Source of the DNA: Trichormus sp. ATA11-4-KO1 | Lineage (GTDB): Bacteria; Cyanobacteriota; Cyanobacteriia; Cyanobacteriales; Nostocaceae | Direction: 5' to 3' | DNA length: 64,000 nucleotides | NCBI GenBank assembly: GCA_019358915.1 | Contig: JAHHIM010000065.1 | Coordinates: 224,001-288,000, forward strand | In this document: in pieces, positions 2,874-30,720 of the stretch | How the letters are laid out: every line of letters starts with the position of its first letter | Position numbering within the stretch: the stretch's first letter is position 1 | The notes under the pieces: model-generated | Database searches by the model: none | Seen by the model: the letters and a program-made list of their open reading frames with translations, nothing else | What the model was told of the DNA's origin: nothing | Made by a program: the position numbers and the translations under genes

Positions 2874-3095
2874 ATGACATTACAAGAATTGCAAAAACAA
2901 GTACTGCAATTACCAACAAGTCAACGCTGGCAATTAGTACATACTCTGTTAGAATCACTACAACAAGAAATTCAACCAGTATCAAAAAAAAGGAACTTGT
3001 CTCGACTGCGTGGTATTGCTAAAGATGCCAATATATCCAATGATGAAAATATGACGGCAGATTATGTTACTTATTTGACAGAAAAATACCAGTAA
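2874..3095 (+). CDS. Small putative antitoxin
   Basis: 73 aa, ends YLTEKYQ, stop overlaps start of PIN ORF. Confidence 0.65.
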   Translation: MTLQELQKQVLQLPTSQRWQLVHTLLESLQQEIQPVSKKRNLSRLRGIAKDANISNDENMTADYVTYLTEKYQ

Positions 3096-3280
3096 TGCAA
3101 GTTTTAATTGATACAAATGTCGTTCTTGATTTTTTACTTGAACGAGAGCCTTTTGTAGAAGATGCAGTCAAAATCTTTGCAAAAATTGATGCAGGTGCGA
3201 TTGAAGGGTTTATTACTGCCACTACAATTACTAATATTTATTACATCATTCGTAAAGCCGCCGATGCATTATTGGCATAA
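3095..3280 (+). pseudogene. PIN-domain toxin, 3'-truncated
   Basis: VLIDTNVVLDFLLERE start; only 61 aa, runs into the 32-bp repeat at 3270-3303. Confidence 0.75.
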
Positions 3281-3296
3281 AAAATCTCCCCAACAC

Positions 3297-3611
3297 TAAG
3301 GGAGATAAAAATTAAAAATTTTTTAATAAAAAAACGGTAGAGAACCGAAATCCTCCACCGCTTATTTAATTTAAAAAATTCTAATTAAGATTCAGCACCT
3401 TGGGGCATTAATTCCCGACGCTGTTGAGAACTAACTTGGACAACGCCATTTTCATCAACATCAACTAAGGCTGTATCGCCGTCCTTGATGCGACCAGACA
3501 AAATTTCTTCTGCTAGGCTATCTTCTAACAAGCGCATAATTGCTCGACGTAATGGTCTAGCACCGTAGCTAGGACTGTAACCTTCCTCAATCAAACGATC
3601 TTTGAAGCGAT
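3297..3611. repeat. Direct-repeat copy of the clpC 3' end plus downstream terminator (partner 5664-5979)
   Basis: Near-identical ~315 bp; encodes the last ~75 aa of ClpC. Confidence 0.95.
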
Positions 3612-3842
3612 TCAGTTACTTAATTCCGCAGCTAGAAGCCTACCTTCAATTGGTTCATACTCATCTTCAAGTAACCATAACTTAGCAATATCGTAGCTAT
3701 TGCTAGAAAATACAACTTTATAACCCTGCGCTGGATCATAAATTTTACAGTTTTCTTGACCGTCACAAAGCAACAAAAGAATATATGGAGGCGATAACAT
3801 TGGATCTATCCATACTTCCGTAAATTCCCAGTTATTCTTCAC
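3612..3842 (-). CDS. Putative immunity/antitoxin protein
   Basis: Small acidic protein, GTG start overlaps the end of the upstream toxin-like ORF. Confidence 0.55.
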
Positions 3843-4167
3843 TAGGTCTGGTGCGGGGGATGACGTGGTATTGGTTGTCTGCATTGATTTTTATCTCCCC
3901 ATAATAAAGTAGAATATGGCTACCATCTGGACTGATTCTATAACCTATTGGTTCATTAAAAAACATTCCGTAGCGTTCATAACCGCGAATGATTCCAGTG
4001 AACTGTCCATTTTCTATGGCTTGGGCAACTTGATTCATGGTAGTTTCATCGTTAAATACATGAGCTGCCAGTCCTCGTTTAAGAAGTCTTTGCATTTGAG
4101 GTGTACCAGCTATGTGCTTGGCAACTTGTCTAATATCAAGCATAATTTGACGATTTATTTCGCTCAT
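3832..4167 (-). CDS. Putative RNase toxin (polymorphic-toxin C-terminal type)
   Basis: KHIAGT near N-terminus and YHVIP at C-terminus, reminiscent of Ntox50-like toxins; coupled to small downstream gene. Confidence 0.5.
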   Translation of the reverse strand: MSEINRQIMLDIRQVAKHIAGTPQMQRLLKRGLAAHVFNDETTMNQVAQAIENGQFTGIIRGYERYGMFFNEPIGYRISPDGSHILLYYGEIKINADNQYHVIPRTRPSEE

Positions 4168-4476
4168 TATTAAGTACCTACGCATAAATATTTAGACATT
4201 TTTCCACACGAATGAAATCGCTGTATTCCAATACTGTCACCTGTCACCGTTCGGCTGACGCTCACGGCGAAGCCTGTCCCCTTTCCTAGCTAGGTAATTT
4301 ATTTTGCACGACTACTTAATATGTCTTGTATATTGTTGATATCACCAGCTTGCCTAGCTAGCTAATTCAGTCTGAATAGCAGAATACCGCCTTAAAGGTA
4401 CGGTTATTACTCTATTTAGAGGTAAAAAATTATTCTGTACACTGCCACCTTATTTGCATAAAACATCTCCCCAACA

Positions 4477-5655
4477 CTAAGGGATGGTGAATTCGCTGTT
4501 ATCAAGCGGGGTGGGGTCGATGAACCAGCCGATACCGTTGGCGTTGTGGTCGATGAGGATTGTGCCTCCGTTGGGGTGACCGAGGGGGTCGAATTGGGTT
4601 AGTTGAGCTTCTGCTAGTTGTCCGGTGGGGAGGTCGGTGATTTGGAAGGAGATGTTTAAGGTGGGGTCGAAAAGGGATGGCCACAGATCAGTAGCACTAT
4701 ATTTAAGATCGGAAAATAAGTTGGAGGTTAAATTATGGTTTGGAGAATTACTACTGATGAATTGTTGGCGCGTTATAAAGCTGGGGAGCTTAACTTTAAT
4801 GGGATTGAGTTGATTCGCATTGTTGGCGAAATGGGCGAAAGAGATGGGATCGATGGTCAGATTACTGGGCTTGAAGGTGCTGACTTGCGAGGTATTAGCC
4901 TGCGGGGAGCTAATCTTGAAGATGTCGATTTGAGTGGGGCTAATTTGACTGGATCTGATTTGTTCGGAGCTTATCTGGGTGGGGCTGGTTTGGTAAAAAC
5001 TATTCTCAGGGATGCTAACTTGTTCTCCGCCAACCTGAATCATGCCACTCTGACCGGAGGTGATTTGACCGGGGCTAATTTGAGCCATGTAAACGCGATT
5101 AGCACTGTTTTCATTGGTGCTAAAGTTGGACACTTTGAATACGCCGATTTGACTCAGGCTAATTTCCGAGATTCTACTGCTAATGCGTATGGTCTCTGTC
5201 GTAGTTTCAATCTGATCTGGCGTACTATTATGCCCGACGGTAGCATCGAAGAAGGTCCCTACTATAAATGGAGATAGTTCTTTTTCTGTTGCAGCCATTA
5301 AAGGGGCTGGTTCAATAATGTTAATTCTTGTTCTAATATCTGTAACATTGCGATTTTCAATTGCTTGTTGAATATCTGTAGGAATATTGGACAAAAAATT
5401 ATAGCCAGTTATATCTTCAAGTTGTTTAACATTAAATAGTCCAAATGTTTTTCCATTAAGTGTAAAGTTTTGTTCCCAATGCTCATCAGGGTCTTGCCCT
5501 TTACGATTTGCATCAAGGGTATTGGGTAAATAAATACCAACTTCCAAACACTTTCGGAGACACTGATTTTATTGTTAAGTAGAAGAGGATTGCCAGAACT
5601 ATCTATTGCTTGTCCCTCTCTTCCTGCAATGACATACAGTTCTTTATTATGCTTA
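4477..5655 (-). pseudogene. Remnant of large multidomain protein: C-terminal part of NucA-type DNA/RNA non-specific endonuclease plus downstream extracellular domain
   Basis: NKELYVIAG...KISVSESVWK in an upstream frame; LEDITGYNFLSNIPTDIQQAIE; later ITDLPTGQLAEA...GWFIDPTPLDNSEF; truncated at both ends. Confidence 0.75.
4735..5277 (+). CDS. Pentapeptide-repeat protein, nested antisense in 4477-5547
   Basis: A[DN]Lxx repeats, ELLARYKAGE N-cap, TIMPDGS C-cap, GGAGGT RBS at 4723-4728. Confidence 0.9.
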   Translation: MVWRITTDELLARYKAGELNFNGIELIRIVGEMGERDGIDGQITGLEGADLRGISLRGANLEDVDLSGANLTGSDLFGAYLGGAGLVKTILRDANLFSANLNHATLTGGDLTGANLSHVNAISTVFIGAKVGHFEYADLTQANFRDSTANAYGLCRSFNLIWRTIMPDGSIEEGPYYKWR

Positions 5656-5701
5656 TTTCACGTTAAGGGAGATAAAAATTAAAAATTTTTTAATAAAAAA
5701 A

Positions 5702-5727
5702 CGGTAGAGAACCGAAATCCTCCACCG
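5702..5727 (-). terminator. Putative intrinsic terminator of clpC (duplicated at 3335-3360)
   Basis: Hairpin cggtagag...ctccaccg followed by T-run on minus strand. Confidence 0.6.
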
Positions 5728-5752
5728 CTTATTTAATTTTTAAAAATCCTAA

Positions 5753-8224
5753 TTAAGATTCAGCACCTTGGGGCATTAATTCCCGACGCTGTTGAGAACT
5801 AACTTGGACAACGCCATTTTCATCAACATCAACTAAGGCTGTATCGCCGTCCTTGATGCGACCAGACAGAATTTCTTCTGCTAGGCTATCTTCTAACAAG
5901 CGCATAATCGCTCGACGTAATGGTCTAGCACCGTAGCTAGGACTGTAACCTTCCTCAATCAAACGATCTTTGAAGCGATCGCTCACTTCTAGGGTGATAC
6001 CTTTTTCTGTTAGGCGACCAAATACTTCCTTGAGCATGATCTCCGCAATTTGTGTCACCTCTGGCTTGCTCAACTGACGGAAGACGATAATTTCATCTAG
6101 ACGGTTGAGGAACTCTGGACGGAAGTATTGCTTCAGTTCTTCGTTCACCAAGGAGCGAATACGGTTGTATTGTGACTCGCTAGCATCGTCGGCGAATTCA
6201 AAGCCGATACCGCCGCCGCCTTTTTCAATTACCTTGGAACCAATGTTAGAAGTCAAAATCAGCAAGGTGTTCTTGAAGTCTACTGTGCGTCCTTTGGCAT
6301 CGGTTAAGCGACCGTCTTCCAAAATTTGCAGCAGCATGTTGAAGACATCGGGGTGAGCTTTTTCGATTTCATCGAATAGCACCACAGTATAAGGTCGCCG
6401 TCTGACAGCTTCAGTTAATTGACCGCCTTCGTTATATCCAACATAACCAGGAGGTGAACCAATCAACTTGCTGACGGTGTGGCGTTCCATGTATTCGGAC
6501 ATATCCAAACGGATCATTGCTTCTTCGGAACCGAAGAAGTATGAAGCCAAGGATTTCGCCAATTCTGTTTTACCTACGCCGGTCGGCCCGGAGAAGACAA
6601 AACTAGCAATAGGTCGATTGGGATTTTTCAACCCGACACGAGCGCGACGAATTGCTCGTGAAACTGCTTTGACTGCATCTTCTTGACCAATTAAGCGTTG
6701 ATGCAAGGTGTCTTCCATGTGCAGCAACTTCTCGGATTCTGATTCGGTGAGCTTGTTCACCGGTACACCAGTCCAGGAAGCGACGATGTGAGCAATGTCC
6801 TCTTCGTCTACTACAGGTTCTTCACCTTCATTGCCAGAAGCATTGGTTTTGCTTTGAGCGATCGCGCGAATTTCGGCTTTGATTTCCATCTCGCGATCAC
6901 GCAGTTCACCAGCTCTATCGAAGTCTTGGGAGCGTACAGCGTCGTCTTTTTCTTTTAAGATTTGCCGTAGTTCTTTGTCTAACTCTTTGGCTGCGGGTGG
7001 CAGTTGGGAGTTAATCAAACGTACCCGAGAACCAGCTTCATCGATTAAGTCGATGGCTTTGTCTGGGAGGTAGCGATCGCTTATGTAACGGTCAGATAAT
7101 TTTGCCGCCGCCACCAAGGCTTCGTCAGAAATTTTCAGCTTGTGGTGCTGCTCGTAGCGTTCGCGCAACCCGTGCAAGATTTCAATGGTTTCGTCAACTG
7201 ATGGTTCACCCACCATTACTGGCTGGAAGCGTCGCTCTAGGGCTGCATCTCGCTCGATGTGCTTGCGGTATTCATCCAGGGTTGTGGCGCCAATACACTG
7301 CAATTCGCCTCTAGCCAAAGCTGGCTTGAGGATATTTGCTGCGTCAATGGCTCCTTCAGCCGCACCTGCACCAATCAGGGTGTGTACCTCGTCAATTACC
7401 AGAATGACGTTACCCGCAGAGCGGATTTCATCCATGATTTTTTTGAGGCGTTCTTCAAATTCACCCCGGTACTTGGTTCCTGCTACCAGCAAACCAATAT
7501 CTAGTGTGACTACGCGTTTATCTTCCAGGATGTCGGGGACATCTTTGTTGGCAATGCGCGATGCTAGACCTTCGGCGATCGCTGTTTTACCAACCCCTGG
7601 TTCACCAATCAGCACTGGGTTATTTTTAGTCCGGCGACCCAAAATTTGGATCACCCGCTCAATTTCTTTGGCGCGTCCGACAACTGGGTCTAGCTTGTTG
7701 TCTGCTGCCATTTGGGTCAGGTTTGAGCCAAATTCATCCAAGGTTGGAGTTTTGGTGCGTCCCGATTGTCCAGTGGCTGAAACCTCTGCTGTTTCGCCCA
7801 GCATACGGATGACTTGGGTTCTGACTTTAGATAAATCCACCCCGAGGTTTTCTAGCACCCTGGCTGCTACACCTTCCCCTTCCCGGATCAGGCCCAACAG
7901 CAGATGCTCGGTGCCAATGTAGTTATGCCCTAATTGGCGCGCTTCTTCCAAGGATAGTTCTAAAACTCGCTTTGCCCGTGGCGTAAACGGAATTTCCACG
8001 GCCACAAAGCCCGAACCCCGGCCTATGATTTTTTCTACCTCAATGCGGGCATCTTTCAGATTGACACCCATTGATTTCAACACTTTGGCCGCGACTCCCG
8101 TACCTTCCCCAATCAGACCCAGGAGGATCTGTTCGGTTCCGACGAAGTTGTGACCTAAGCGGCGGGCCTCTTCTTGGGCCAGCATGATTACCTTAATGGC
8201 TTTTTCTGTGAAGCGTTCAAACAT
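5753..8224 (-). CDS. clpC: ATP-dependent Clp protease ATP-binding subunit ClpC
   Basis: [22 protein letters not shown]; two Walker A motifs GEPGVGKT and GPTGVGKT. Confidence 0.98.
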
Positions 8225-29865: not shown

Positions 29866-30720
29866 TTAAATTGAATATTTTGGCAATTTCACAAAAACCT
29901 TATCACCTTTAATCTGTACTGGATATGAATGCAACGAAATATCAGGAGTAGTTAAACATTCACCTGTTGCTAAATTGTACTGAAATCCATGTCCAGAACA
30001 AGTAATGATGCTATTATTTAACTTACCCATATCCAGAGGAGATGCTAGGTGTGGGCAAGCATTACGGTAACAGTTAACATTAACACCTTGTCGATATAAA
30101 ATCAGCAAATTATTACCGATTTCACCTGTCAATATCCCAGATTCGGGAATTTGATCAATAGTTGTCACTTTTACCCAAGTAGCAGTTTCCTGTGGAGAAA
30201 ATGGACTTATGAAACTAGAATTACTACTAGTAACCTGATGGGTATCATTAACTGCAACTACTTTAGTAATTTCAGGACAATGATTTTTAATTGCCTGTTC
30301 CACGCCGTGAGATAATGTCAAAGTAGAAGCCGGACAACTACTGCAAGTTCCTATCAATCTAACTTCTACCGTATCTGGCGGTTTAATTGCTACTAATTCC
30401 ACATCTCCGTTATGGCTTTTTAAACCTGGACGCACTTCTTCAAGGGCTGTTTGAATTCGTTGTATTAATGGCGTTTGTGGTGGTTTGACTAATTCATGAT
30501 AAAGCAGTACAGCGTACACTAATTCATCAGCAACTGCATGACGCAAAGCTGACATCGATTCTTGTTTTAGGCTTTTAATCAAACTAGTTAAAGCTGCTTT
30601 ATGTAATGCTTCAATTGCTCTTTTTAGTCCTACTGCTACACACCGTTGACTTTCATCCCATTCCGATATAATTGCCTCAAAACGGTTAATTTCTTGAACT
30701 AGTTCTTCAAGGTTGGTCAT
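29866..30720 (-). CDS. NifU-C plus Rieske domain protein
   Basis: HNGDVELV...GTCSSC; NACPH...CSGHG. Confidence 0.88.
   Translation of the reverse strand: MTNLEELVQEINRFEAIISEWDESQRCVAVGLKRAIEALHKAALTSLIKSLKQESMSALRHAVADELVYAVLLYHELVKPPQTPLIQRIQTALEEVRPGLKSHNGDVELVAIKPPDTVEVRLIGTCSSCPASTLTLSHGVEQAIKNHCPEITKVVAVNDTHQVTSSNSSFISPFSPQETATWVKVTTIDQIPESGILTGEIGNNLLILYRQGVNVNCYRNACPHLASPLDMGKLNNSIITCSGHGFQYNLATGECLTTPDISLHSYPVQIKGDKVFVKLPKYSI

Follow-up and report, generated by a model that had tools for sequence, protein, structure and literature searches.

A pentapeptide-repeat gene nested antisense within NucA-type nuclease genes of cyanobacteria: a candidate toxin and inhibitor pair

We analysed a 64,000-nucleotide stretch of DNA from the cyanobacterium Trichormus sp. 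ATA11-4-KO1 (contig JAHHIM010000065.1, positions 224,001 to 288,000; hereafter the window), in which a complete pentapeptide-repeat gene lies on the plus strand, entirely inside a nuclease-encoding open frame of the minus strand. The overlap is genuine, occurs widely and is under selection. The reading of the inner gene as a nested immunity gene is well supported by genomics, although unproven. With a probability of roughly 0.6, the arrangement would represent a polymorphic nuclease toxin in which the toxin domain is internal and a cognate acidic inhibitor is nested antisense to it.

Results

The nested gene and its host frame

The nested gene (4735..5277, plus strand) is complete and encodes a 180-aa pentapeptide-repeat protein of net charge -7, a predicted cognate nuclease inhibitor. 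The protein has at least eight tandem repeats and matches Pfam Pentapeptide (PF00805) in four stretches (E=6e-24; 83.6 bits versus a cut-off of 20.2), which places it in this family, and its N-cap resembles the Alr5209 family (NF052603, E=1e-16, under the cut-off). The Shine-Dalgarno sequence GGAGGT (4723..4728, plus strand) stands 6 nt 5' of the ATG and itself lies within the host frame. That frame is open from stop to stop over 363 codons (4477..5568, minus strand) and is the remnant of a gene for a giant secreted-type protein, paralogues of which have 10,408 and 780 codons. An earlier sequence-only reading had placed the plus-strand gene wholly inside the minus-strand frame, with the same codon boundaries and its own ribosome-binding site, and this was confirmed throughout. 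The start at 5547, a TTG, is mechanical, and the nuclease remnant reaches about 5657 across a frameshift.

Read along the minus strand, the host frame encodes the C-terminal third of a NucA-type (Endonuclease_NS) nuclease without the catalytic His and Asn (5278..5544). The tail has no Pfam match alone. The proposed NucA-type identity was established through two paralogues that match Endonuclease_NS and to which it is 68-69% identical; it is 75% identical to the nuclease of locus L115. An extra nuclease piece in a different frame (5529..5657, minus strand; 67% over 43 aa to L115) lies beyond the frameshift and a short deletion near 5540. The pentapeptide codons (4735..5277) read on the host strand as a Ser/Ile/Gln/Thr-rich linker by composition, with no confident fold by AlphaFold. 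Behind them, homologues identify the first ~60 residues of a conserved domain, here the WFID domain (4480..4665, minus strand), which is HExxH metallopeptidase-like when intact and has its zinc motif cut off in the window; its Atlas lead was Peptidase_M10 with a score of 0.90. The host frame of the window had no match in NCBIfam or Pfam.

The window fragment thus begins mid-nuclease and ends 60 residues into the downstream domain, and the inner gene alone is whole. The inner gene is 74% identical to that of L115, the best match for both nuclease stub and inner gene. A promoter scan returned three sites, fewer than in shuffles, and none upstream of the inner gene. We regard the window copy as an orphan left at an insertion site behind clpC: the gene for the predicted inhibitor is intact and has kept its upstream DNA, and the nuclease is reduced to a dead stub. 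The suggestion that it is a truncated relic of a system intact elsewhere was borne out, as the intact form occurs in the same genome.

Occurrence of the nested layout

From an alignment of 16 copies of the downstream domain (the flank), a contig scan by the flank alone recovered 141 relatives, and the best 80 of these were kept and hold 85 modules. An antisense pentapeptide gene lies just upstream of the flank in 75 of the 85 modules, always in codon register (75/75); four of the other ten modules lie at a locus edge. The host frame is open across the inner gene in 74 of the 75, so that stops on the minus strand at homologous loci, which would have spoken against the overlap, are not the rule. 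Named hosts include Nostoc, Tolypothrix, Calothrix, Rivularia, Anabaena, Chamaesiphon, Waterburya, Xenococcus, Crocosphaera, Leptolyngbya and other cyanobacteria; two records among the relatives are labelled otherwise. Intact loci are found, for instance, on plasmids of the cultured strains Anabaena cylindrica PCC 7122 and Aulosira laxa NIES-50.

Pooling the flank-scan loci with loci from searches whose query included the overlap, and dropping identical genes, gave 82 distinct inner genes. They span 120-318 aa, with a median identity of 34% among the 43 with a full nuclease. Shine-Dalgarno-like 4-mers precede 55 of the 82 nested starts versus 23 of 246 control windows. Among 11 plasmid records, annotation shows the host only in eight, the inner gene and a split host in two, and nothing there in one; the gene table for the plasmids is incomplete. 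Five loci (L062, L066, L078, L083 and L122) carry nested pentapeptide genes of ~300 aa that are two fused units, each with its own caps, and the host frame is open across them.

Codon evidence for coding on both strands

The 22 Leu codons of the window inner gene are TTG (12), CTG (5), CTT (3) and CTC (2), with no TTA or CTA, and none of its nine Ser codons is TCA, exactly as the sequence-only reading had counted. The absence of these codons is the same fact as the open frame; the test is therefore a comparison with expectation. Given the codon usage of the genome (47% of Leu as TTA/CTA, 17% of Ser as TCA), the chance of a stop-free antisense frame in the window gene is 1.9e-7. Antisense-open windows of 180 codons occur once in 4,796 within long open reading frames of this genome, and antisense-stop codons are present in each of the 22 free-standing pentapeptide genes that a pattern search recovered from it.

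Across the 82 nested genes, a single antisense-stop codon occurs among 1,748 Leu and 1,078 Ser codons, where ~882 would be expected from flanking genes, and it sits in the one module with a broken host frame. The opposite frame is open in none of 37 un-nested genes of the same family and in none of the 22 free-standing ones; all of these carry the forbidden codons, and the avoidance is not a habit of the family at large.

Codons that give Cys in the host are depleted 11- to 18-fold relative to flanking genes. In nested genes GCA makes up 21 of 1,448 Ala codons and ACA 18 of 820 Thr codons; their un-nested counterparts in the family have 144 of 851 (17%) and 102 of 388 (26%). Codons that would yield Arg, Tyr or His in the host are also reduced. 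The hosts themselves are almost devoid of Cys, with one in 10,376 residues of the giant protein and 24 in 64,288 residues downstream of the overlap across hosts. Differences between inner genes fall at codon positions 3, 1 and 2 in the order 590, 349 and 240. Selection acts on both strands, on the pentapeptide gene for a folded protein and on the host strand for a stop-free, cysteine-poor spacer; the codon statistics (1 versus ~882, and the Cys-codon depletion) back the earlier proposal that selection kept both strands coding. An enrichment of GGA and AGA, considered as a host-strand effect, was dropped because un-nested genes show equal usage.

The nuclease and its matched partner

Endonuclease_NS was detected in 51 of 63 segments upstream of the overlap. 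All 51 are at least 139 aa long, and the 12 misses are stubs of 64-117 aa. Different toxin folds in the slot were considered and rejected, as Endonuclease_NS alone occupies the 51 long segments. Catalytic residues are retained in intact homologues (GH in 43/43, Asn in 41/43 and Glu in 42/43).

Nuclease and pentapeptide gene form a cassette that is exchanged between distant lineages, and the flank follows close kin. Nearest neighbours agree between pentapeptide and nuclease in 16 of 43 loci, between pentapeptide and flank in two, and between nuclease and flank in none, although the flank is equally adjacent. Loci with flanks 90-96% identical carry nucleases just 28-41% alike, and wherever the normalised pentapeptide score of a pair exceeds 0.5 (19 pairs), that of the nucleases does so too. 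Divergence among plain nucA genes is much lower.

Many modules are broken. Of the flank-scan modules, 40 retain the full nuclease frame. In 32 the break falls inside the nuclease and the inner gene survives, and in seven it falls at or in the inner gene; judged by length, the bias has p=0.005, a rough value in which first stops are proxies for breakpoints. Genes that by their motif resemble REP-associated tyrosine transposases (REP, repetitive extragenic palindromic) lie directly upstream of orphan modules of one family (L035, L037 and L038). Net acidity is universal in the 82 nested proteins and holds for 30 of 37 array members (see below), against only 13 of 22 free-standing proteins.

Un-nested relatives

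We identified a sister system in which the same type of nuclease ends proteins of 1,300 to several thousand residues, followed by a stop and separate pentapeptide genes of the same family. A pentapeptide gene adjoins all 18 terminal nucleases of this type; these loci are 17 of 20 regions picked by nuclease match (the other three being one nested copy and two plain nucA genes) plus an Oscillatoria nigro-viridis plasmid. The 37 un-nested genes counted, 31 convergent and six on the same strand, contain 364 forbidden codons in 1,110 Leu and 628 Ser codons, and none is free of them. Arrays of 2-4 pentapeptide genes occur in 11 of the 17 terminal loci. One member of an array, with a single TTA and 79% identity to a nested gene, looks like a recent release from nesting. 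Pairing extends across architectures: for the six terminal nucleases closest to nested ones, the partner ranks 1, 1, 1, 1, 2 and 3 of 42. Distant cases no longer show the pairing (ranks 4-38). A quick tree of 78 nucleases mixes nested with terminal types, and its well-supported branches force at least seven changes between the two.

The sequence-only reading had suggested that the partner may be inseparable from its nuclease. The pair is nevertheless separable in layout because the sister architecture carries it un-nested, and orphans persist without a working nuclease. Plain nucA genes have NuiA convergent behind the nuclease in 11 of 15 loci. The genome of the window also holds a plain nucA with a convergent NuiA-like gene (G000:C13:94142-95725). 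The nested partner belongs to PF00805 and not to NuiA (PF07924), which was found solely beside plain nucA; inspection of open reading frames revealed no NuiA in nested loci. Two loci show other rearrangements: at L159:1143-1991, within an array, an in-frame, same-strand fusion joins a nuclease stub to a pentapeptide protein, and at L134:880-2676, on the O. nigro-viridis plasmid, a group II intron splits the parent toxin gene just before the nuclease.

The intact host protein and its putative export

Two paralogues of the window module occur in the same genome, one in a giant frame on contig C41 and one in a 780-codon fragment on C36. The giant gene is a single frame of 10,408 codons (G000:C41:1570-32793) with its inner gene at 29968-30492. 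Ahead of the nuclease, the protein carries an N-terminal M10-like peptidase motif and CARDB, PA14, PPC, He_PIG, Big_9, dockerin and propeller regions. The nuclease domain itself (Endonuclease_NS, E=3e-34; about residues 9150-9450 of the frame) is followed by the overlap, another HExxH domain, Big_9 and PKD. Most of the host protein consists of CARDB, Ig, PKD, cadherin and Calx-beta repeats. In an AlphaFold model of the C41 paralogue, the nuclease and HExxH domains are predicted with confidence and the overlap has a predicted local distance difference test score (pLDDT) below 50. The best fold match of the C41 nuclease is Anabaena NucA, 39% identical. The His, Glu and His of the HExxH domain are invariant in 16 of 16 aligned copies. 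The host-strand reading, with its period of five and Gln-Ile-Ser pattern, was tried as a second beta-helix and rejected (pLDDT below 50 in context, mean 49 when modelled alone with 70 sequences).

Directly 5' of the giant gene is an unannotated gene of ~243 aa (G000:C41:678-1418), and a gene of equal length likewise precedes the giant gene of an Anabaena cylindrica plasmid (L174:17869-18600). The C36 copy (L023, G000:C36:406200-409226) is a mosaic orphan with decayed pieces of a window-type nuclease and then a second nuclease stub. The N-terminal three quarters of its inner gene are common with the C41 copy and the C-terminus is different; recombination therefore also occurs within the overlap.

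Genes for a peptidyl-prolyl isomerase (PPIase), an ATP-binding cassette (ABC) transporter with a peptidase domain, and HlyD follow the giant gene in five of the 11 plasmid records, and the same cassette begins after the giant gene in two further loci. C41 ends 73 bases past the giant-gene stop, and close homologues of the ABC (partial) and HlyD genes lie near the end of contig C4. The near-absence of Cys in the host fits type I secretion. No type I secretion genes were seen near terminal-type hosts in 17 stretches from nine loci, mostly upstream, which makes for a weak contrast.

The insertion site behind clpC

The ~1.2-kb fragment in the window is inserted between the two halves of the second clpC terminator hairpin, with TAAGGGA at both junctions (5664-5670 and 4478-4484). 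The left half, with the junction core TAAGGGA, is at 5664..5670 (plus strand). The other half with its tail, a 35-nt repeat of 3269-3303, is at the other end of the fragment (4450..4484, plus strand) and supplies the stop at which the host frame ends at 4477. After the fragment come other cargo and then a duplicate of the clpC 3' end with both terminators (3297..3611, minus strand; a copy of 5664-5979), which marks a variable insertion site. A genome of the same genus has a different, shorter insert at the clpC site (1,043 versus ~2,400 bases).

A second insert behind clpC (3612-4185, minus strand) contains a gene for a DUF6972 protein (E=1e-49) and a 90-aa orphan gene, which may form a toxin-antitoxin or toxin-immunity pair; similar DNA occurs near clpC in two relatives. 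PADLOC gave no match for this pair, and none among the four proteins run. At 2874-3280 an antitoxin-like gene is followed by a PIN-domain gene shortened to 61 aa where the clpC terminator copy starts. Dozens of copies of a short dispersed repeat (4170-4320), which resembles a miniature inverted-repeat transposable element or REP element, are scattered over this genome and that of its closest relative.

Discussion

The scheme we propose begins with giant genes that read through adhesion repeats, the NucA-type nuclease, the back of the pentapeptide gene, the HExxH domain and Ig/PKD/Calx-beta repeats, with both strands under selection and the nuclease and pentapeptide gene exchanged together. The acidic beta-helix would stay in the cytoplasm and block its own type of nuclease via the DNA groove, as NuiA does NucA, and spare inhibitor copies could protect against the nuclease variants of neighbours. 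The giant protein would leave by a type I secretion system that requires its C-terminus, and the toxin could not be terminal because of this requirement. Nesting would then weld the inhibitor to the nuclease, with a conserved flank on either side, which would let the two be swapped in one step. More speculatively, the adjacent HExxH domain might cut the disordered linker and free the nuclease. It is about an even bet that these genes represent a widespread cyanobacterial weapon class arising by overprinting, with a DNA-mimicking immunity gene antisense in the toxin frame, a back side serving as cleavable linker, cassettes that repeatedly enter and leave nesting, and orphans that record rivals.

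The sequence-only reading had suggested that the nested gene may be an immunity or partner protein. Matched pairs, occupancy of the NuiA slot, retention in orphans and acidity point that way indirectly; inhibition, expression and killing we infer. Several observations weigh against the toxin and nested inhibitor. NucA itself is a scavenging nuclease. Type I secretion genes are not adjacent to the giant gene in six of the 11 plasmid records, no RTX (repeats-in-toxin) motif GGxGxD occurs in 29 downstream parts, and the C-termini of hosts are of several unrelated kinds, although non-RTX substrates of type I secretion exist. No route of uptake into a target cell is evident. Resemblances of the HExxH domain are weak (EcxA, E=0.05; Peptidase_M10). 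The Mantel correlation of pentapeptide and nuclease is modest (0.24 versus 0.14 for the flank, with kin that are not independent), and neighbouring genes co-vary through linkage alone. The nested-type nuclease of L106 forms a long, odd row in the tree. Finally, the host frame does not slow substitution, as the third-to-first-position ratio is 1.69 in both 12 nested and nine un-nested pairs. With no slowed substitution and no confident fold, the inner gene therefore sets the sequence, and the host only filters stops and some residues.

Self-protection without warfare is one alternative. The host would be a surface adhesin whose DNase scavenges or remodels extracellular DNA, with the nested protein as a cytoplasmic safety inhibitor like NuiA and the diversity a product of age and drift. 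The adhesion-type repeats that make up most of the host, the single nuclease fold in the slot (unlike classic polymorphic toxins) and the scavenging NucA as top structural match are consistent with such a role, but we consider it unlikely: close kin with nearly identical flanks have strongly different nucleases, plain nucA genes have diverged far less, and orphan and arrayed pentapeptide genes without a working nuclease, which are common, make sense only if foreign nucleases arrive. Less probable still is that the pentapeptide protein is no inhibitor and instead a folding or export chaperone of the nuclease or a regulator, or that the antisense transcription itself tunes the giant gene. The available parts of PMC8145042 describe no pentapeptide nuclease inhibitor, and YjbI-type genes beside GH-E nucleases are left unexplained in those of PMC5714182. 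A chaperone, however, would not persist in orphans and arrays once the nuclease is lost, the pentapeptide gene takes the place where NuiA stands in plain nucA loci, and purifying selection at the amino-acid level (position 3 > 1 > 2) speaks against a role for RNA alone. We give hardly any credence to a host left untranslated through the overlap, with nuclease and downstream gene separate and pentapeptide repeats tending to leave the opposite frame open. RefSeq does split the host and annotate the pentapeptide gene alone in two records, and the foldless linker with its unslowed substitution would suit this, but the opposite frame is open in nested genes only and the avoidance of Cys matches the host.

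Bacterial genes nested antisense over a long stretch are disputed, and most are young with no known function; this one recurs in dozens of divergent copies across cyanobacterial families. The pic/set pair is reportedly another antisense gene embedded in a gene for a secreted protein. The present system brings its own control in the form of un-nested copies of the same genes, along with a clear candidate for the partner, in a layout that annotation pipelines hide. If the reading as an overprinted weapon class is true, bacteria would here have their first antisense nested gene pair that is ancient, multi-family and functionally coupled, and a large share of the cyanobacterial pentapeptide proteins now unexplained would gain a function. 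As candidate nuclease inhibitors they would form a new family of many specificities. They may also serve kin discrimination in cyanobacteria that form biofilms and mats, and they make a natural series in which the gain and loss of gene overlaps can be followed.

No description of a nested nuclease and pentapeptide layout was found in the literature searched, coverage of which mostly excludes subscription papers, and the available parts of the Lipocone preprint and of PMC10933656 contain nothing bearing on it. The comparisons that follow likewise draw on the available parts of the sources cited. NucA/NuiA of Anabaena (PF01223/PF07924; PDB 2o3b; PMC2790893) shares the nuclease family, the catalytic residues and the placing of the partner gene, which follows the nuclease immediately on the other strand. 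It differs in that here the partner is a pentapeptide beta-helix inside the frame, the nuclease is a domain of a giant protein, and both are hypervariable. Acidic mimicry of DNA is known for EndoGI (PMC2790893) and for MfpA/Qnr (PMC8145042). MfpA, Qnr, AlbG and the cyanobacterial Alr5209 belong to the same repeat family and are acidic, and the N-cap is Alr5209-like; unlike the role proposed here, the known targets are topoisomerases, Alr5209 has no shown function, and no nuclease inhibition is described in that part of the source (PMC8145042).

Polymorphic toxin systems, including those with orphan cassettes and poly-immunity loci, likewise combine a conserved stalk, a swappable toxin, a matched small partner, orphans and tandem partner paralogues (PMC3482391). 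In contrast to these, the toxin is internal and flanked on both sides, has one fold and a partner nested antisense, and the orphans keep the partner and lose the toxin. Set against the criteria of Zhang et al. 2012, the swapped cassette and the orphans and arrays are present here, but the nested hosts, which when full-length extend ~950-2,000 residues past the nuclease, have neither a terminal toxin nor several folds; a C-terminal toxin is found in the sister architecture only. The word 'pentapeptide' is absent from the 300,000 characters of PMC3482391 that were covered, and its large supplement may list the system. YjbI pentapeptide genes adjoin GH-E His-Me finger nuclease toxins, with no immunity role proposed (PMC5714182). 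They are similar in lying beside nuclease toxins for which no other immunity gene was found, and differ in the nuclease group, the type VI secretion context and the separate genes. The translated antisense genes of Pseudomonas aeruginosa, olg1 inside the toxin gene tle3 and olg2 in PA1383, are young and nearly species-limited (PMC8850804). As here, they are antisense genes within genes for secreted proteins and depleted in stop codons. They have no known relation to the mother gene, in contrast to the gene described here, which belongs to a Pfam family, occurs in many cyanobacterial families and co-varies with the adjacent domain of its host.
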